DNA from: a virus | Taxonomy: Duplodnaviria > Caudoviricetes | IMG/VR virus record: IMGVR_UViG_3300043654_000004 | Coordinates: 1-55,445 of that record | Direction: 5' to 3' (one strand) | DNA length: 55,445 bases | Part shown: positions 1 to 9,534 of the stretch, one piece after another | Layout: every line of letters begins with the position of its first letter | How positions within the stretch are numbered: position 1 is the first letter of the stretch | Program-made: the position numbers and the translations under genes | Notes under the pieces: model-generated | What the model was told of the DNA's origin: nothing | Database searches by the model: none | The model's input: only the letters and a program-made list of their open reading frames with translations

Positions 1-448
1 TTGGAATAGTCGTTGGCGCGTAAGCAGAGTTAACCGGAATCTTAGGCGCTTCGACAAGCGTCTGACTATTACCGACATCAGAAACTGATCCGCCAGCGCT
101 TTGATTGTTATTTGTCGAACTCTGACTTTGATCTTGTTTCTGCTTCTGACCTTGATTCTGGTTAGAAGATGAAGTAGATGATGAATTAGAATTCGCGTTA
201 GCGCTTGAATTAGAACTTGAATTCGACGTTGACGAAGAAGTAACCGGAGACTTAGGATCAGCAGTCGGCAACGTCATACATTCAAACGTCAATCCGTTAT
301 CGACTACGACCTGTCCGGGGCCATCTCCAACACCATTGCCGACCGTACCTGTAGGAACTTGTACACGAACTTGTCCGCTTTGAGAACAATTCCAAGCAAA
401 AGCAGGAATACAGAACAGCATAAAAATTACTGCAATAACAATTTTCAC
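1..448 (-). CDS. Secreted Ser/Asn/Gln-rich protein, 3' end outside the window (absent from ORF track)
   Basis: GTG start at 448 after SD AGGAGG; translates MKIVIAVIFMLFCIPAFA-WNCSQSGQVRVQVP... (signal peptide ending A-F-A) followed by a low-complexity S/N/Q tract; frame open to the window edge. Confidence 0.8.
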   Translation of the reverse strand, partial: MKIVIAVIFMLFCIPAFAWNCSQSGQVRVQVPTGTVGNGVGDGPGQVVVDNGLTFECMTLPTADPKSPVTSSSTSNSSSNSSANANSNSSSTSSSNQNQGQKQKQDQSQSSTNNNQSAGGSVSDVGNSQTLVEAPKIPVNSAYAPTTIP

Positions 449-461
449 TTACCCTCCTAAA

Positions 462-788
462 ATTTGCCCCGATTCTGTTTCGAGGTTCGGGGCCAACCCA
501 AGCTACTTTGGTTTAGGCCGCAGCAGCAGCAAATGCGCGTGGCTTTTCAGTCATGGCATTTTTGATTATGTGTCAGATTAACGAGAGCCACATCGACTCG
601 AAACGTCCACTGCCTCTTTAATGCCCCTGTCGAATCTACGCATCCCCGCTCAAGGCTCTTAACCTTCAGCGAGGATGGTGGAGATGTCCGGGGGTCGCAC
701 CCGGAGTCCAGAAACAAAAGAAACAGCTTCATACGTTTATAACTTGGGCGACTTTCGCCGCCTCCACCAGTAAACTTAAAAAGCTTAC
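462..788 (-). ncRNA. ssrA: Circularly permuted (two-piece) tmRNA gene
   Basis: Minus strand order: acceptor piece ending GAC-TCCGGG-TGCGACC-CCCGGA-CATCTCC-ACCA (708-676), 28-nt intervening segment (675-648), then coding piece starting GGGGATG (647-641) that pairs with CATCTCC including G3.U70; GATTCGAC motif; long helix 2 complementarity; PK1 (CGAG/CTCG with ATGTG/CACAT); tag frame 557-513; terminal hairpin GCCCCGA/TCGGGGC. Outer ends approximate. Confidence 0.93.
513..557 (-). other. tmRNA tag reading frame, (A)AMTEKPRAFAAAAA*
   Basis: Resume codon GCC after A-rich AATCAAAAAT just downstream of PK1; ends in an Ala run and TAA as expected for ssrA tags. Confidence 0.85.
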
Positions 789-794
789 TTTTTA

Positions 795-823
795 ATATTA
801 CCATTCAACATATTCATTGTCAA
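795..823 (-). promoter_or_regulatory. Sigma70-type promoter for the tmRNA gene
   Basis: TTGACA (823-818), 17 nt, TAATAT (800-795), with TG of an extended -10. Confidence 0.75.
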
Positions 824-998
824 GCTTTATTTCTTCTTTTTCTAAAAATAAATGATAAAAAGTTGCGTTAAGGTGCCAACCAACAACACAACCTGTTAAT
901 ATCTTTCTCGTCTTTGATCGGCAATCAAAGGCTTCAATTAGTCCGACTAGCGCCAAAGCACCGTGAATCAAAGCCTTAAGATTCTTTTCCTTCATCAT
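798..998 (-). CDS. Small hypothetical protein with hydrophobic segments
   Basis: ATG overlapping the polymerase stop (ATGA); MMKEKNLKALIHGALALVGLIEAF...; 66 aa. Confidence 0.6.
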   Translation of the reverse strand: MMKEKNLKALIHGALALVGLIEAFDCRSKTRKILTGCVVGWHLNATFYHLFLEKEEIKLDNEYVEW

Positions 999-2950
999 GC
1001 CTTCTTGTACCTTTGACCTGCGTAACCTTCCACAGCCAACGGAATATCCAACCCCCACTTTGGTCGATTTGTCATACATTCTTCAAATTGCTTATACGTC
1101 AAATTCGATAGAAGTTTTACAAGAGCTACAAGCTCATCATGGACGTGTAGCACAATTTCAAACCCCGCTTCAGTCACGTTCATCATCCCGTTAACAAGAA
1201 TATCTCTAGCAATCGCCTGAACTACATTTTCTACAATTGCCGAACCTCGGGCTTCAATTACCCCCCAACCGCCGCCTTTCCCGCCCGGACCATTATAATT
1301 TAACACTTTATTGTTATATAAGTCAAGTCCTATTGTTGGATTGTCGTAATGAAGCGCCCGACCCGAAGGAAGAATAATATGCAACATTTTCGGGTCCCGG
1401 CCATCAATCCGAAGCGGGCCAAGTTGAAACTGTTCTTTTAACATGACCGCCCGAACGACTGTTAACCCCATTGATTTCCAATAAGATACGACTTCAGGGT
1501 AAGCCTCTCGCCATGCCCAAACTAACTCTTGAGCTTCTTCTAGGGTGATCTTCTGTCCCATCTGGAGCGCGTAGGCGACTAGCCGAGCAGCGCCCATCCC
1601 AAAGCCACAACCTAGGACCGGAGACTTACAAAAGTTTCGTTGTTCTTTAGTGATTAAGTCGTAAGCAATTTTAAACTTTAGAACAGCAAAGGACTTGTAT
1701 GGATCAAGACCATTCTTGAAGACTTCAAGCATTCCGGGACATTGGGCAAGCCAAGCAAGAACCCGATTCTCGATAGATGAATAATCAGCGACGAATAATT
1801 GACTTCCTTCTGGAGCGCAAACACTTCCTCGGAGAGTTCCCCCCACAGCTTCAACTGGATGAATATTCTCTGGAAAATCCAACCCTTCTAAAATCGCCTT
1901 TATAATCGCGTCATTATTTTCAGCTACTCGTTTAGTTGGTTTTAACAGATTATGAAATTGAACTCCTCGGCTTGCCCATCTTCCGGTATGGGCAGAGTGG
2001 TAGGTGAAAGCTTCGCAAAGCCGATTCTCTCGGGTTCTTTGCTGGATGACAGGTAACTTCTTAAACGCAATCCCGCCTAAAAGTTGTTTTAGTTCAAGAA
2101 CATCTCGAACTTTGAACGAATCAAGAGACGTTAATTTATTGTTTTCCAAAGCCGCAGAAATGTGACTTTTATCCAGAGATTCTAATGCATAACCTTGTTC
2201 GGCAAGCCAATTGCCTAACTGTTGAACTGAATTTGGATTCTTAACTCCGGTCAATTTCTTCATCTCATCTAAAATTATTGCCCGACTTTCTTCTACTCGG
2301 GCCAAAGCTTTGCCGACGAAGTTCAAGTCAATAGGAACTCCGCGCTGATTAATCTTCTGATCCAGAATCCACGTCTTTCTTTCGATTTCAGGGAAGGGGT
2401 GTTTCTTTTCGAGTTCGTGTAAATTTGCCCGTTCTGCTATGACATCCTGTTTACAATAATCCATGAACTTAGCCCATTCTTCAGGATTAGTTTCAGCATT
2501 CTTGAAATGGCTAGGAACTTTCTTTGTTCCCTTGGCCGGGGTGCAAAACGTCTTAATCAATTTCTTGCCTTCGGGATTTTTAAGATAGGCGACATCTAAT
2601 CCTAGCGCTTCGCCTGCGTCGTCCAACTTGCCCGGATATCCGAGATATCGGGCGTAGGCCATAGGGTCAAACCATTCTTCGATCTTAAGCATTATACCAA
2701 GTACAAAGGAAATAATTGCAAACTCGAAAGAAGCGTTCCAAGCGATCTTAGTAACGCTCGGGTCTGTCAAGGCCGATTTTACCTTAGCGGGCATTTCTTC
2801 CGAACCGGGCAAATACATTGAAACCGGGTCATCATTGAAGGCATAAGCGAGCATAAGTACTTTAGTATCAGGATGATGGGCATAGACATCCGTACCTACT
2901 TTCTTCAAGTTCGCAATTGCCGAAGTTTCTAGGTCTAGGTGCAATCTCAT
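995..2950 (-). CDS. Family A DNA polymerase, phage type, with 3'-5' exonuclease
   Basis: Exo motifs DLET, WNASFE, YCKQDV; polymerase motifs HTGRWAS, DYSSIENRV (A), RNFCKSPVLGCGFG (B), VHDE (C). Confidence 0.95.
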   Translation of the reverse strand: MRLHLDLETSAIANLKKVGTDVYAHHPDTKVLMLAYAFNDDPVSMYLPGSEEMPAKVKSALTDPSVTKIAWNASFEFAIISFVLGIMLKIEEWFDPMAYARYLGYPGKLDDAGEALGLDVAYLKNPEGKKLIKTFCTPAKGTKKVPSHFKNAETNPEEWAKFMDYCKQDVIAERANLHELEKKHPFPEIERKTWILDQKINQRGVPIDLNFVGKALARVEESRAIILDEMKKLTGVKNPNSVQQLGNWLAEQGYALESLDKSHISAALENNKLTSLDSFKVRDVLELKQLLGGIAFKKLPVIQQRTRENRLCEAFTYHSAHTGRWASRGVQFHNLLKPTKRVAENNDAIIKAILEGLDFPENIHPVEAVGGTLRGSVCAPEGSQLFVADYSSIENRVLAWLAQCPGMLEVFKNGLDPYKSFAVLKFKIAYDLITKEQRNFCKSPVLGCGFGMGAARLVAYALQMGQKITLEEAQELVWAWREAYPEVVSYWKSMGLTVVRAVMLKEQFQLGPLRIDGRDPKMLHIILPSGRALHYDNPTIGLDLYNNKVLNYNGPGGKGGGWGVIEARGSAIVENVVQAIARDILVNGMMNVTEAGFEIVLHVHDELVALVKLLSNLTYKQFEECMTNRPKWGLDIPLAVEGYAGQRYKKA

Positions 2951-6427: not shown

Positions 6428-7177
6428 ATGACTGTCGGCCTTTCTGTATATAATCCTAAATTGTTAATTGGCGTTATTGCATGTCACCATAGAGCGCCCC
6501 ATCTTAACGCAATTAGAAATACTTGGCTTCCTGATACAAAGAATCGTTGTGACTATAGATTTTTCTTTGGACGTGGGCAACACGCGAACACACAACCTGA
6601 TGAAGTAATTATGGATTGTGATGATGCCTATCGTGGGCTTGCTTGCAAGGTCAAGGCAGCTTGTGAATGGGCACTTGAACATGGATATGAAGAATTTTAT
6701 AAGGTAGACGACGATACATATGTACGACCTGAACGAGTTGTTCGGGCTGGATTTGAGAAATATGATTACGTAGGAATGAAAAATGGCCCTACGGACAAAT
6801 ACCACGAATGTATTTATGCTCGCGGAGGAGCGGGATATTATCTTAGCAAACGAGCATTAGAAGCGCTTGCTGCCGCGCCAATTCCTAATCCTGATATTCC
6901 GAAAGATTACGCTGAAGATTCTTGGGTCGGTCGGATAACAGCCGAAGCAGGAATTGAATGTACGAATGACGACCGAGTTCGTTGCGCTGATTTCAGTGGG
7001 CCGAATCGTAGTCCTCGGCCAACGGGAAGTACAACTTGGAAACGAGATGTTCCAACACTTCATAATAAAATAATTTCAACATGCGAATTTCTCGGTTCTG
7101 AAATGTTGCAAGTTCATGATGAGTGGATAAAGTCTCAAGAACGGCATACGGCGTTAATGAGTAAGATTAAAATTTAA
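6428..7177 (+). CDS. GT31-like (beta-1,3-galactosyltransferase/Fringe-like) glycosyltransferase
   Basis: IRNTW, DAYRGLACKV, KVDDDTYV, GGAGYYLS, AEDSWVG motifs. Confidence 0.85.
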   Translation: MTVGLSVYNPKLLIGVIACHHRAPHLNAIRNTWLPDTKNRCDYRFFFGRGQHANTQPDEVIMDCDDAYRGLACKVKAACEWALEHGYEEFYKVDDDTYVRPERVVRAGFEKYDYVGMKNGPTDKYHECIYARGGAGYYLSKRALEALAAAPIPNPDIPKDYAEDSWVGRITAEAGIECTNDDRVRCADFSGPNRSPRPTGSTTWKRDVPTLHNKIISTCEFLGSEMLQVHDEWIKSQERHTALMSKIKI

Positions 7178-7211
7178 GTTTTAGATCGTTTCGATTCGCT
7201 ATCGGAGCGCG

Positions 7212-7249
7212 GGGGAGGTGCCTCAAACGCCTTCCCATCTTTTTTGAGG
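7212..7249 (+). promoter_or_regulatory. H-type pseudoknot that can sequester a Shine-Dalgarno sequence
   Basis: 9-bp stem 7212-7220/7228-7236; loop CCTCAAA exactly complementary to TTTGAGG (7243-7249) upstream of ATG 7255. Confidence 0.6.
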
Positions 7250-7254
7250 AAAGA

Positions 7255-7362
7255 ATGATTAATTTTTATTGCTATATTTGGTTGCGCTACAGTTAGGTAA
7301 AAAACATTCTGAAGAAACGAAACAAAAGATGAGAGAAGCACACGATAAACGTCGGAGGAAAA
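7255..7362 (+). pseudogene. Internally deleted GIY-YIG/NUMOD3 homing endonuclease remnant
   Basis: MINFYCYIWLR start joined out of frame to NUMOD3-like LGKKHSEETKQKMREAH. Confidence 0.6.
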
Positions 7363-7363
7363 A

Positions 7364-7879
7364 ATGCTTAGAAACCCAAATGATGTGATTTTGTCAGATG
7401 TACATCACGACGTTGATATGCACGCCGATTGGCTTTCATCCGTAGCAAAAGGAATTATTTTTGAGATAGGTGTACGAACAGGAATATCTACTGCATCTTT
7501 TCTTCGAGGGCTAGAAAAGAACGGCGGGCATCTTTATAGTTGCGAAATTAACCCTACATGTTCTGATATTTTTGCTGGACACCCACAATGGACTTTTATT
7601 CTTGGTGATAGTAGAAAGCCAGAAACGATTGTTACTAAGATTCCGAATAAGTTAGACATTTTGATGATTGATGGCGATCATACTTATGAAGGCGTGAAAG
7701 ATGATCTTAACAATTACACCCCATTAGTTAAATCTGGTGGTCGGATTATTCTTCATGACGTTTGTTCTGGGTACGATCCGGGAGTTCGACAAGCATTCGA
7801 TGAATTCATTGAACAGACAGAATGGGACGCAAATATTTATGAATCATGGGTGGGGCTTGGGGAGCTTTTAGTTCCATGA
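7364..7879 (+). CDS. Class I SAM-dependent methyltransferase (Methyltransf_24-like)
   Basis: EIGVRTGIST, IDGDHTYEGV, GGRIILHD motifs. Confidence 0.88.
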   Translation: MLRNPNDVILSDVHHDVDMHADWLSSVAKGIIFEIGVRTGISTASFLRGLEKNGGHLYSCEINPTCSDIFAGHPQWTFILGDSRKPETIVTKIPNKLDILMIDGDHTYEGVKDDLNNYTPLVKSGGRIILHDVCSGYDPGVRQAFDEFIEQTEWDANIYESWVGLGELLVP

Positions 7880-8715
7880 TTATCGACTGTTGTATGTTCT
7901 ATAATGAAGTGTCTATGCTCGATTTGAGACTTCATGAATTAAATTCTGTAGTAGATAAATTTGTCATTGTTGAAGCAGAAGAAACAATTGGTTCTGGTCA
8001 GAAGCGTAAAGCAGTTCTTCCCGATAATTGGGAAATCATTAAACCATTTGAAAATAAAGTTCATTATAAATTACTTCCGAAACTTGAACCGCCATTTACG
8101 GGATTACCGGGCGATCCTTGGGGCAGGGAACGATTTCAACGTAATCAACTTCTGACAGCGGCTTTAGAACTGAATCCGCAACAAGATGACACATTAATTA
8201 TTTCTGACGTAGATGAAATCCCCGATCCAAAAGTAATCATTGATAATATTTATCGGCTAGATAAAGGTATTTGTCGATTAGCGATGAAATTCTTTTACTA
8301 TAACGTCAACAATTTTTTAGGCACTTGGACACGCGGTTCAACGATGGGACAACTTTCACATTACGTGCAAGTTAGTCCTGAAGATTCACGATATAAAAAT
8401 CAAGATAACGAACACATTATTGAAAACGCCGGATGGCATTTTAGTTTCTTCGGCGGCGTAGACAATATCAAAGATAAAGTAACTCACTATTCTCATGCCT
8501 TAGATGGTATTTGTACAGATTTACGGGCAAGAGATGATAAAGAATTGATTAAAGATGTTCTTGCAGGTCAAGACTTATTTCGTAGAGAAGGCATGAATAA
8601 GTTTATCAAGACTTCGACTTTTGATCCGACTTTACCTAAATTTTACTTAAATAACCTTGGTCGTTATAAACAGTTTACAGAAGAATATTTTGTAGAGAAA
8701 CATAGACATTGCTAA
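7876..8715 (+). CDS. GT17-like (GlcNAc-transferase III/MGAT3-like) glycosyltransferase
   Basis: Start at ATGA overlap; IIDCCMFYNE, LDLRLHEL, FVIVEA, ERFQRN, SDVDEIP, GWHFSF motifs. Confidence 0.88.
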   Translation: MIIDCCMFYNEVSMLDLRLHELNSVVDKFVIVEAEETIGSGQKRKAVLPDNWEIIKPFENKVHYKLLPKLEPPFTGLPGDPWGRERFQRNQLLTAALELNPQQDDTLIISDVDEIPDPKVIIDNIYRLDKGICRLAMKFFYYNVNNFLGTWTRGSTMGQLSHYVQVSPEDSRYKNQDNEHIIENAGWHFSFFGGVDNIKDKVTHYSHALDGICTDLRARDDKELIKDVLAGQDLFRREGMNKFIKTSTFDPTLPKFYLNNLGRYKQFTEEYFVEKHRHC

Positions 8716-8727
8716 ATAGGAGGAGCG

Positions 8728-9534
8728 ATGGCCGTTTGCGCTGATTGTAAAGAAGAGACGAGATTAAGAAAAACAAAAGGCGTGGAATGGCATAAATGTT
8801 GTGGCTGCGGATACTTCGGAGATTTTGAACCGACAGAACGCGCAACAATTGTAATTCCGAGTCGCTATCCTGATATTTTCGGGCCTTGTAAAGACTCGTT
8901 AGATAAATTCGCGCCTCTTGAAAAGAAAATTCTTGTTAGAGATGGACATGATATTCCAGACGCAGCAGGAAATAATTGGGTAACAATTCAAGCGCCAGAA
9001 GGTTTTGTATATTCACGAAATATTAATCTTGGAATCGCACAAGCGAAAGGCGATGTTCTTCTTTGTAATGATGATGTAGTGTTTAAGCATAAACATACAC
9101 TTGAGATTCTTCAGAATATTGCGAGCAAACACCCTGAAGTCGGTATTCTTAGTCCATTGATTGAAGGTAAAGTAGGCGAGTACGTTCAAGGGCATTGCCA
9201 GAATAATCTCGAATATACAACTTGTCGTCTTTGTTTTGTTTGCGTTTTTATTCCTAAGCATATTATAGATGAACTCGGAGTACTTGAAGAGAGTATTGGA
9301 GCAGATGGTTCATACGGATGGGACGACGTAGATTTTTCCCGCCGTGTAACAGACGCGGGGTATAAGTTAGGTGTGACGGCTCGCGCAACTGTGCGTCATG
9401 GGCACATAGACGGTGATTGGAGTACGAGTTTCCGTCGAACTGGAAAAAGCATGGAAGCAATGGATAAGATTGCAGCCGCGCAATTTCGAGCAAAGCATGG
9501 ACATAATGATTTAGGTTGTTATGGACCAAAATAA
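8728..9534 (+). CDS. GT2-family glycosyltransferase with N-terminal Cys4 Zn ribbon
   Basis: CADC...CCGC; NINLGI, LLCNDD, YGWDDVDFSRR motifs. Confidence 0.82.
   Translation: MAVCADCKEETRLRKTKGVEWHKCCGCGYFGDFEPTERATIVIPSRYPDIFGPCKDSLDKFAPLEKKILVRDGHDIPDAAGNNWVTIQAPEGFVYSRNINLGIAQAKGDVLLCNDDVVFKHKHTLEILQNIASKHPEVGILSPLIEGKVGEYVQGHCQNNLEYTTCRLCFVCVFIPKHIIDELGVLEESIGADGSYGWDDVDFSRRVTDAGYKLGVTARATVRHGHIDGDWSTSFRRTGKSMEAMDKIAAAQFRAKHGHNDLGCYGPK

Follow-up and report, generated by a model that had tools for sequence, protein, structure and literature searches.

RNAs that read the free 3′ end of a tRNA are already known. The antiterminator bulge of the T-box pairs with the NCCA end of the tRNA and the GGU motif of RNase P RNA pairs with CCA; these contacts span 2-4 bases, act on tRNAs and lie within large conserved RNAs. 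Trans-acting antisense RNAs and engineered toehold strand-displacement switches carry a single-stranded nucleation site beside a hairpin that hides the remaining complement, and in toehold designs targets are told apart by mismatches close to the toehold. Phage tmRNA genes have been catalogued for years, and we know of no clear reason for their existence. Among them, two-piece tmRNAs are described in passages on the Methylophilales phage Melnitz and the pelagimyophages (PMC9004378), and an account of permuted tmRNA genes states that their intervening segment is processed out (PMC11915505). Mycobacteriophage DS6A encodes a tmRNA relative consisting of the tRNA-like domain only, which is said in two sources to inhibit the endogenous tmRNA, perhaps by titration of SmpB (PMC4131195, PMC11915505, citing Mao et al. 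2009). Elements that integrate into ssrA are described as carrying the end of the tmRNA gene in their attP (PMC11915505, PMC9004378).

The window analysed here, that is, the whole stretch of 55,445 nucleotides, is a soil metagenome contig that is 58% complete and ends 500 bases past a tmRNA. The Rfam model RF04321 (gathering score 47) located, with 74.3 bits, a permuted (two-piece) tmRNA gene at minus-strand positions 738..513, and the match covered model positions 1-213 of 213, with the acceptor piece preceding the coding piece; ARAGORN did not detect a tmRNA gene at this site. In the acceptor stem, whose 5′ strand starts at 647 and whose 3′ strand stops at 680, the third pair is G.U, and the tail ACCA at 679..676 provides the discriminator A and the CCA end. 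The tag frame (557..516, minus strand), whose resume codon was set by analogy with other tmRNAs, reads AMTEKPRAFAAAAA, has an alanine-rich end and is followed by a stop at 515..513. By its sequence, 738..513 encodes a phage two-piece tmRNA, predicted to be processed into two RNAs and to be active in trans-translation, and the segment between the pieces is expected to be removed on maturation. The locus resembles the Melnitz and pelagimyophage tmRNAs in having an acceptor piece, an intervening segment and a coding piece with a tag frame. It differs in its leader: the passages on the Melnitz gene describe a glutamine riboswitch and no tail-complementary element (PMC9004378), whereas the leader in the window carries an antisense module. 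The GC-rich hairpin that possibly ends the tmRNA transcript was absent from the output of the terminator scan (Table 1).

Table 1. Features of the phage tmRNA locus and its leader (positions in the window)
Feature	Positions	Strand	Description
Sigma-70-type promoter-like site	795..823	-	-35 TTGACA 823..818, 17-nt spacer, TG, -10 TAATAT 800..795
Hairpin H1	770..789	-	From folds; adjoins the heptamer on its 5′ side
Unpaired heptamer UGGUGGA	763..769	-	Watson-Crick complement of the tmRNA/tRNA-Ala 3′ tail UCCACCA
Hairpin H2	747..762	-	6 bp, GAAA loop, one G.U pair
Predicted helix, 5′ strand	739..746	-	Minimum-free-energy fold of 790..466; predicted partner near 506..497
Acceptor piece	676..738	-	Rfam model: P2 3′ strand, T arm, acceptor 3′ strand, CCA ending at 676
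Intervening segment	648..675	-	Rfam model: follows the CCA and precedes the coding piece
Coding piece	513..647	-	5′ acceptor strand begins at 647 and forms G3.U70 with the acceptor piece
GC-rich hairpin followed by AAAUUUU	459..494	-	From folds; possible terminator of the tmRNA transcript

The segment of interest lies at 770..747 on the minus strand, in the 5′ leader of the permuted gene, and is antisense to a tmRNA end. An earlier note on this DNA had read it as UGGUGGA-GGCGGC-GAAA-GUCGCC, and this sequence is present as stated, the heptamer being followed directly by H2, whose 5′ strand carries the antisense match to standard tmRNA ends on to 13-14 nt. The note had also likened the complement on the plus strand to the end of a tmRNA. 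Indeed, the reverse complement of 770..747 matches the 3′ end of GGGGGCG-type tmRNAs, and in a hand alignment the plus-strand 23-mer shared 19 of its 23 positions with the end of a real Myxococcota tmRNA. The promoter-like site upstream matches 10 of the 12 consensus positions, has a TG preceding the -10 and reads towards the module and the tmRNA; four such sites were seen in the region when 0.9 were expected from shuffles. The segment is probably transcribed together with the phage tmRNA, with a start predicted near 788 from the promoter-like site. Beyond the module, the helix predicted at its 3′ side would bring together the acceptor piece, at its 5′ end, and the coding piece, immediately past the tag stop. 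The motif is single-copy in the window (nine one-mismatch matches against 6.35 expected). No Rfam family was found at the module in 440..860, neither at gathering scores nor at E values up to 10. The beta_tmRNA model extends to 783 only since it models a promoter region.

These features place the module near several known systems and set it apart from each of them. Like the T-box and RNase P RNA, it presents an unpaired, UGG-containing stretch between helices that would read a tRNA-like free 3′ end, so that only an uncharged end could pair. Unlike in them, its complementarity spans seven bases and can be extended to 14, and, unlike in the T-box, a Stem I/specifier element and a competing terminator were not found at the module. 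As with the DS6A RNA, we propose that a phage RNA disturbs host trans-translation; the DS6A RNA is a mimic that competes for a protein, while the module is antisense to the tmRNA 3′ end and lies on or beside a complete phage tmRNA. In contrast to known antisense and toehold RNAs, it would be directed at the acceptor end of an RNA that is stable and structured, instead of at an mRNA. A literature search of titles and abstract openings found no natural toehold-type antisense against tmRNA and no published description of the module.

We then considered the pairing with foreign tmRNA ends. According to the earlier note, the segment could form 14 contiguous pairs with a standard end and only about nine with the phage's own end. 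For the 14-nt end that the note had named, RNAduplex returned 14 contiguous pairs at -32.3 kcal/mol, and for the own end eight Watson-Crick pairs plus one G.U at -15.6 kcal/mol, in agreement with both figures. Ends of the GGGGGCG type, which the note had given as known, are borne out in the sampled Myxococcota, alpha-type permuted and Pseudomonadota tmRNAs: a GGGGG(C/U)G start with a matching 3′ strand is present in 28 of 31 Myxococcota tmRNAs, a GGGGGCG start in 17 of 30 alpha-type permuted tmRNAs and the matching 3′ strand in 11 of 30 standard Pseudomonadota tmRNAs. The segment in the window makes 13-14 contiguous pairs with ends found in 10 of the 31 Myxococcota tmRNAs. Across loci, 13 of the 18 modules in which GG extends the heptamer (GG-extension modules) reach at least 11, and at most 14, contiguous Watson-Crick pairs with 44 of the 60 sampled bacterial ends, and among the 15 modules found without the motif as bait, five have an extension matching bacterial ends. 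Seven of 25 modules are heptamer-only and pair equally with any tmRNA, their own included. The extension did not match tRNA-Ala, as judged from four bacterial tRNA-Ala genes and that of Myxococcus phage Mx1. Cofolding of the window module with five Myxococcota tmRNAs gave -8 to -21 kcal/mol and 6-24 intermolecular pairs, in energy models that disregard the locking of both partners in their helices as well as the SmpB, EF-Tu or AlaRS bound to the acceptor stem in cells. The comparison with host ends that the note had proposed came out positive for Mx1 at the level of the phylum, the tmRNAs of its host phylum matching; for the window phage the bacterial-end matches refer to phylum samples. Altogether, the reading of the segment as antisense of a standard tmRNA 3′ end is supported by the sequence comparisons.

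The module recurs across phages. Within 30-260 nt before the tRNA-like 3′ half, the heptamer was present on the tmRNA strand in 23 of the 193 phage tmRNA loci listed (12/103 and 11/90) and its reverse complement in the same zone in one of the 193 (1/103 and 0/90). By their folds, 16 of the 23 matches are modules, approximately one in twelve sampled phage tmRNA genes; the analysis as a whole covered 231 listed loci. The seven matches left out as not module-like were L280, which is a tRNA 5′ end, L282, L301, L349 and L363, which lie upstream of a promoter and apparently in ORFs, and L454 and L522. Three other entries were removed (L002, a close relative of L003; L367, with its own end unparsed; and L181, without a tmRNA), and the metagenome loci L224-L232 were left out of the counts. 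The module set consists of curated positions selected partly by eye, the automatic finder being too noisy (tmRNA genes read backwards). Among sampled bacterial tmRNAs the heptamer occurred in one of 92 (Myxococcota 1/32, alpha-type permuted 0/30, standard Pseudomonadota 0/30). A general trait of permuted tmRNA precursors was ruled out, as none of 30 bacterial genes carries the heptamer. The exact 24-mer occurs in at least seven unrelated viral or metagenomic contexts, each time on the strand of the neighbouring tmRNA or tRNA genes; the approximately 10 identical copies are not independent proof that the extension is conserved, because the search patterns required the 24-mer. In 185,579 species genomes (one per species), the 23-mer pattern gave three matches, all inside ORFs. 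The segment thus exceeds chance, and the conservation that the earlier note had wished to see checked holds in related and in unrelated phage tmRNA loci.

The common architecture is a hairpin, then the unpaired UGGUGGA, then a second hairpin, and it is found within one-piece tmRNAs, upstream of permuted ones or nearby. By Rfam placement, the module lies inside eight standard tmRNAs and upstream of permuted tmRNAs and would therefore be produced as RNA with the tmRNA, usually 62-129 nt ahead of the phage's own tRNA-like half. The sequences of both hairpins vary freely; H1 also varies in length, and in 14 of 20 modules, counted from folds, it ends exactly at position -1. The hairpins flanking the heptamer are more stable than those at 260 control heptamer sites (p = 3e-6 and 5e-8), and in 23 of 27 modules H2 is stabler on the tmRNA strand than on the opposite strand (mean -2.8 kcal/mol, Wilcoxon p = 2e-5). 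Some copies stand apart from the tmRNA body: L181 has no tmRNA within 13.9 kb and a promoter-like site 60 nt upstream, L183 also has a promoter-like site, and in Mx1 and L004 the module is positioned after the tmRNA. We dropped the view that L181 and L183 are complete small-RNA units, as the scan found no terminator-like site after the module in either; the promoter-like sites remain. Mx1 is the one cultured carrier and was found with a 36-nt query of the GenBank phages, among which window positions 400-1000 gave no match and the L003 version of the query no useful match.

The own ends of the carriers deviate from the foreign ends in the direction that reduces pairing. Own ends give seven or eight Watson-Crick pairs in 26 of 26 modules, and the tmRNA of the window phage deviates at positions 67-68, leaving eight Watson-Crick pairs, or nine with the wobble. 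C68-C69, whose background frequency is 38% among phage ends (n = 207) and 77% among bacterial ends (n = 60), occurs in the own end of none of the 18 GG-extension modules versus four of the seven others. Conversely, the own end has G69 in 12 of the 18 GG-extension modules versus none of the seven others (Fisher p = 0.005), against a background of 19% in phages, 0 of 60 parsed bacterial ends and none in 30 further bacterial ends. A permutation test gave a sum of 6 for the extension pairs formed with own ends, compared with a mean of 28.8 for random phage ends, and none of 20,000 draws was as low; for the unbiased subset the values were 3 versus 11.3 (p = 0.0034), and all p-values given here are optimistic because modules may share ancestry. 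Covariation with the phage's own end was not found beyond the universal heptamer, extension position 8 matching own position 69 in approximately one-third. The comparative data support modules able to discriminate foreign from own tmRNA ends. The block-and-replace scheme of the earlier note, in which one transcript neutralises the host tmRNA and supplies a resistant substitute, is therefore upheld in part: own-end avoidance, the match to foreign ends and conservation speak for it, and the seven of 25 modules that are heptamer-only cannot tell own from host.

In the reading that we propose, 789..747 holds a copy of a phage RNA module serving as receptor for the tmRNA 3′ acceptor tail, with a block of the host tmRNA as its most likely function; we put the probability of this reading at roughly 0.45. 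Transcription from the consensus-like promoter would yield the module as the 5′ leader, or 5′ end, of the acceptor piece belonging to the phage's two-piece tmRNA. The module would capture the uncharged 3′ end of the host tmRNA, with pairing nucleated at the free ACCA. Because the heptamer fills the gap between two abutting hairpins, the UCCACCA tail, once bound, would stack as a continuous helix. The 5′ strand of H2 would lengthen the complementarity to 13-14 bases with the commonest bacterial end (GGGGGCG type), and after nucleation both the module hairpin and the host acceptor stem would be opened, leaving a host tmRNA that could not be charged with alanine. The phage tmRNA, spared the extended pairing, would take over ribosome rescue with its own tag. 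We infer binding in vivo, inhibition of the host tmRNA and a benefit to the phage. It is possible, at somewhat less than even odds, that the modules as a whole form a widespread class of phage RNAs, so far undescribed, acting as sequence-specific traps of the host tmRNA tail in a natural toehold-and-hairpin design, whose carriers would have become immune by flipped or changed acceptor-stem pairs, notably C4-G69. Against such a trap stand the locking of the extension in H2 and of the target strand in an acceptor stem of 7 bp, as well as the regular spacing of 62-129 nt before the own tRNA-like half, which suits a role in cis equally well. Furthermore, the basic function may be docking of the tail and not inhibition of the host, because seven of 25 modules are heptamer-only.

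If the blocking of host tmRNA holds true, the phage would directly take over ribosome rescue and protein tagging during infection by means of a natural RNA device that separates two near-identical tRNA-like ends by one or two base pairs, and the unusual fourth acceptor pair of many phage tmRNAs would be accounted for. Mx1 with its host, or alanylation in vitro, would offer a simple test system, and annotators could use the motif as a marker of phage tmRNA loci.

The foremost alternative, which we consider unlikely though of real weight, is docking or masking in cis, a form of which the earlier note had also named: the heptamer would find its UCCACCA partner in the tmRNA of the phage itself, precursor or mature, and would hold or protect the 3′ end or delay its charging. 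In permuted genes this pairing would last until the later-transcribed 5′ acceptor strand displaced the heptamer, and the GC-rich start of H2 would serve stability only; a built-in mask of the CCA end would be a new regulatory feature of tmRNA. When the acceptor piece and its leader were folded alone, the heptamer region paired with the own tail, whereas the fold of the full precursor left the heptamer free and the tail paired elsewhere. The placement of the module at a regular distance before the own half in most loci, and inside eight one-piece tmRNAs, agrees with docking in cis, as do the seven or eight pairs that all own ends provide, and the heptamer-only modules (7/25) are best explained in this way. 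However, pairing with the own end never exceeds eight pairs in total and shows no covariation past the universal heptamer, while the extension matches foreign standard ends far above the chance level for GC-rich sequence (five of the 15 unbiased modules). Moreover, copies lie after the tmRNA (L004, Mx1) or without a tmRNA in view (L181), and several tmRNA genes lack an encoded CCA, so that only four pairs in cis would be possible in some precursors.

It is improbable that the module is a structural stand-in for tmRNA pseudoknots, with the heptamer binding, for example, a protein or a ribosomal site and matching UCCACCA only incidentally. In favour, the module of reduced one-piece phage tmRNAs does stand where pseudoknots 2-4 would lie, and the H1 and H2 sequences vary freely. 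Nevertheless, a 7/7 complement of a sequence common to all tmRNAs is unlikely by coincidence, the extension carries the complement on in register in at least five independent variants, and stand-alone copies exist. No other conserved partner was found, a Shine-Dalgarno-like reading failing in variants without GG after the heptamer.

The earlier note had also offered an attP core for integration in host ssrA, which we regard as very improbable. Here the DNA would be an attP core or a recombination relic, and its plus strand would represent the host tmRNA 3′ end for a tyrosine recombinase. As in an ssrA attP, the final bases of a tmRNA gene recur on the phage genome; the 19/23 identity of the plus strand to a real end, and the hairpin and T run that come next on that strand, are compatible with this view. 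Unlike in an ssrA attP, the copy is opposite in strand to the neighbouring tmRNA or tRNA genes and is often inside the tmRNA gene, and junctions were not found. The module lies in sense orientation within eight tmRNA genes and on the same strand as the tmRNA or tRNA gene wherever one is nearby, and H2 contains G.U pairs and is stabler on that strand. One prophage junction would be expected to retain the 23-mer, yet none of the 185,579 species genomes carried it between genes. The alternative is thus largely excluded by the modules inside tmRNA genes and the lack of ssrA junctions in these genomes. The search for an integrase gave a divided answer: two relatives, G104 and G105, have a Phage_integrase-domain gene approximately 5 kb and 3.5 kb from the module, the G104 protein being a catalytic domain of only 174 aa, while Mx1 gave no integrase-domain match and no integrase or resolvase domain was found in the window, which is 58% complete and ends 500 bases past the tmRNA. 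Just as hard to sustain is a working plus strand that forms a tiny alanine-type microhelix, since, for all that this strand reads hairpin then UCCACCA tail, with a terminator-like hairpin and T run next in the window, its hairpin register leaves seven unpaired bases and no G3.U70 inside the helix, the G.U of H2 becomes an A.C mismatch, the element lies within tmRNA transcripts of the other strand and the promoter-like sites found point the other way.

Several conventional signals were also considered at the module and rejected. No U run follows H2 on the minus strand, which argues against an intrinsic terminator, and a Shine-Dalgarno or ribosome-binding site was discarded on account of the unbiased variants that lack GG after the heptamer. 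A T-box leader was rejected, with no Rfam match at E values up to 10 over 440..860 and with the scan of L181 and L183 showing nothing like a terminator past the module. A small peptide was rejected as well: the base before the heptamer varies, nothing downstream is conserved, and the hairpin in L003 and that in the window are unequal in length by 11 nt, which is not a multiple of three. In other genomes, the frame through the motif (..VEAAK..) accounts for most of the pattern matches, as coding noise.

The window is an entire IMG/VR virus record (55,445 bases, completeness estimate 58%); among its products are a family A DNA polymerase, a portal protein and a large terminase. Its sole Rfam RNA gene, at 738..513 (minus strand; 74.3 bits, gathering score 47), is a circularly permuted tmRNA with the tag frame AMTEKPRAFAAAAA followed by a stop, for which ARAGORN predicted no gene. 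This tmRNA gene itself is of a known type, the two-piece phage tmRNA; two-piece tmRNAs of phages and tmRNA gene forms are described in PMC9004378 and PMC11915505, respectively. A mechanical ORF listing gave an 85-aa ORF (547-804, minus) spanning the entire tmRNA gene, which is almost certainly not a gene; since ARAGORN misses the tmRNA, an annotator could call it. The genome also carries a run of glycosyltransferase and methyltransferase genes at 6428-9534 (Galactosyl_T/Fringe-like, Methyltransf_24, Glyco_transf_17 and GT2-like).

On the tmRNA strand, the segment flagged by the earlier note (746-770) sits just ahead of the acceptor piece, as part of a module in which two hairpins (H1 and H2) flank an unpaired heptamer. 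The stretch directly after H2 (739-746) is predicted to pair with ~497-506 on the minus strand, directly after the tag stop. This partner stretch aligns with a block that is conserved in the Rfam beta_tmRNA model, and the modelled helix possibly holds the two tmRNA pieces together.

Features of the leader module and tmRNA gene in the window
Feature	Position	Strand	Remark
Promoter-like site (TTGACA, 17 nt, TG, TAATAT)	823..795	minus	reads into module
Hairpin H1	789..770	minus	RNA fold
Unpaired heptamer UGGUGGA	769..763	minus	RNA fold
Hairpin H2 (6 bp, GAAA loop)	762..747	minus	RNA fold
Acceptor piece of tmRNA	CCA end at 676	minus	
Intervening segment (28 nt)	between CCA end 676 and coding piece	minus	
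Coding piece of tmRNA	start 647	minus	5′-most 7 nt paired to the acceptor 3′ strand, G3.U70 among the pairs

Since pattern searches built on the motif force its presence, phage tmRNA loci were sampled through the T arm instead, in two scans whose counts hold among the matches listed (103 and 90 distinct loci). Among these, the heptamer was found 30-260 nt before the tRNA-like 3′ half, on the tmRNA strand, in 12 of 103 and 11 of 90 loci, and its reverse complement at the same place in 1 and 0, with an estimated chance expectation for the heptamer of about 3 in 193. The H1-heptamer-H2 build was present in 16 of the 23 heptamer loci among the matches listed, 62-129 nt before the tRNA-like half. 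By fold counts, H1 ended exactly at the heptamer in 14 of 20 modules and H2 started exactly after it in 16 of 20. The module flanks, in modules chosen partly by eye, were more stable (p = 3e-6 and 5e-8) than those of 260 heptamer sites taken as controls. In 23 of 27 modules the tmRNA strand gave the more stable H2 (p = 2e-5); for H1, the strand comparison revealed no preference. By Rfam, eight standard one-piece tmRNAs contain the module, and permuted ones have it upstream. At the equivalent place in sampled bacterial tmRNA genes, the heptamer appeared in 1 of 32, 0 of 30 and 0 of 30, the single case being part of a pseudoknot without flanking hairpins. Because of the T-arm sampling, the strand and the Rfam and bacterial counts, we conclude that the module is a feature at the RNA level, present in a minority of phage tmRNAs and not general to tmRNA.

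Two relatives, identified via the polymerase (71-72% identity), bore out the conservation in related phages that had been proposed as a check. In both, the heptamer and the first six H2 bases are retained, H2 is longer with compensating changes, and the module lies ~330 nt upstream of a permuted tmRNA, with an ORF in between. The exact 24-mer also recurs in unrelated contexts, always co-oriented with the tmRNA or tRNA genes; it is present in several metagenome contigs, and a 167-kb viral contig has one copy 37 nt downstream of a one-piece tmRNA. Myxococcus phage Mx1 (OR576727.2, L122:1376-2524) carries the 24-mer with one base changed in a tRNA cluster that contains an unannotated tmRNA (117.7 bits). 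There the module follows the tmRNA, with annotated Hef-like and HNH endonuclease genes between the two, and is annotated as a piece of a 42-aa hypothetical protein. Most other pattern matches were coding noise, and a 23-mer pattern run on 185,579 genomes of bacteria and archaea, one per species, gave three matches, all within ORFs. At L180:1047-1519, a tRNA-Pro gene 10 nt past H2 separates the module from the acceptor piece of a permuted tmRNA. L160:1080-1250, unlike other loci, holds a tandem pair of motif-like copies, then two short repeats with ACCACC or UCCACC. At L295:4853-5307 (minus), a ROOL RNA (294 bits, truncated at the edge of the locus) adjoins a module-bearing phage tmRNA and an array of ~20 tRNA genes.

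The heptamer is perfectly complementary to UCCACCA, a tail common to tmRNAs and tRNA-Ala that derives from G1-G2-G3.U70, the discriminator A and CCA; no other partner was seen in the module loops or flanks. As the bases after the heptamer (the extension) decide the reading, each of 26 modules was set against the tmRNA end of its own phage, 207 phage tmRNA ends and 60 bacterial ones. Pairing with the own end covered 7 or 8 bases in every module (maximum 8). Among the 18 modules with H2 starting GG, 13 paired with 44 of the 60 bacterial ends over 11 or more contiguous bases (up to 14), and two further GG-type modules matched GGGGGUG-type ends. Such an extension was present in 5 of 15 modules found without motif bait, far above GC-rich chance (estimate below 1e-4). 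The standard C68-C69 occurred in the own tmRNA of none of the 18 GG-extension phages, compared with 38% (phage) and 77% (bacterial) of the ends at large, while own G69 accompanied 12 of 18 extension modules versus 0 of 7 without extension (p = 0.005), against a background of 19% among phage ends and zero among bacterial ones. The summed extension pairing was 6 with own ends versus 28.8 with random phage ends (0 of 20,000 draws as low), and 3 versus 11.3 in the unbaited subset (p = 0.0034). Pairing with tRNA-Ala would stop at 8 (four bacterial tRNA-Ala genes and that of Mx1). In cofolds of the window module and five Myxococcota tmRNAs, the predicted gain was 8-21 kcal/mol.

The 14 contiguous pairs with a named tmRNA end claimed in the earlier note were reproduced (-32.3 kcal/mol), and the roughly nine with the phage's own end correspond to 8 Watson-Crick pairs and one wobble (-15.6 kcal/mol). 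Its premise of a GGGGGCG-type tmRNA also held: 28 of 31 sampled Myxococcota tmRNAs had a GGGGG(C/U)G start and matching 3′ strand, 10 of them with the full 14-nt complement. GGGGGCG was the start of 17 of the 30 permuted tmRNAs of alpha type, and 11 of 30 standard Pseudomonadota tmRNAs had the matching 3′ strand.

Judged by complementarity, the extension is directed at tmRNA ends of the standard type, and the tmRNAs of its carriers escape it. Both are predictions of the proposed block-and-replace system, in which phage RNA would block the host tmRNA tail and the phage tmRNA would substitute; that proposal agrees with the data in these two respects. Capture of host tmRNA by the module is therefore the leading explanation, to which we give a probability of about 0.45, and it is a specific, directly testable claim. 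In a phylum-level comparison, the tmRNAs of the Mx1 host phylum are of the matching type. Against capture, the extension is concealed in H2 and the target strand in the acceptor stem, which is protein-covered in cells; 7 of 25 modules have only the heptamer, many of the extended copies share one sequence and came from motif-baited searches, and the statistics are inflated by shared ancestry of the modules.

The main rival, docking of the phage's own tmRNA tail, is somewhat less likely: the acceptor piece folded alone is predicted to close via heptamer-tail pairing and the spacing between the module and the tRNA-like half of the phage's own tmRNA is regular, but the heptamer is free in the predicted full-precursor fold, no covariation with the own end was seen and some copies are unattached to any tmRNA. 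The attP site offered as an alternative in the earlier note is a weak candidate. Integrase-domain genes do lie 3.5-5 kb from the module in two relatives and the window ends 500 bases beyond the tmRNA, but the module sits inside tmRNA genes on a constant strand, H2 carries an RNA-strand signal, Mx1 gave no integrase match and the 23-mer scan of bacterial genomes turned up no junction copies. A plus-strand microhelix fits neither the register nor the G.U pair.

The T-box bulge and the CCA-binding loop of RNase P read free CCA ends. The module resembles both in this respect and would work like a toehold antisense RNA, but belongs to none of these classes. DS6A RNA, a tRNA-like domain only, is the nearest phage precedent for tmRNA interference (PMC4131195 and PMC11915505); it is a mimic, whereas the module is antisense. 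A full-text literature search at the level of listings and passages found no published description of such a module. What appears to be new is the anti-tail module borne by the phage tmRNA, the phage tmRNA itself being already known.

In G104, a 94-kb relative, a 174-aa protein that is barely more than a tyrosine-recombinase catalytic domain is encoded at L272:1456-1980, ~5 kb from the module. Finally, the flipped fourth acceptor pair, C4-G69, was found in 19% of the 207 phage ends (L274-L534) and 0 of 60 parsed bacterial ends, and G69 was also absent from 30 further bacterial ends (bacterial loci L236-L270, L390-L419 and L535-L564); on these sequences, it may be a general mark of phage tmRNAs.
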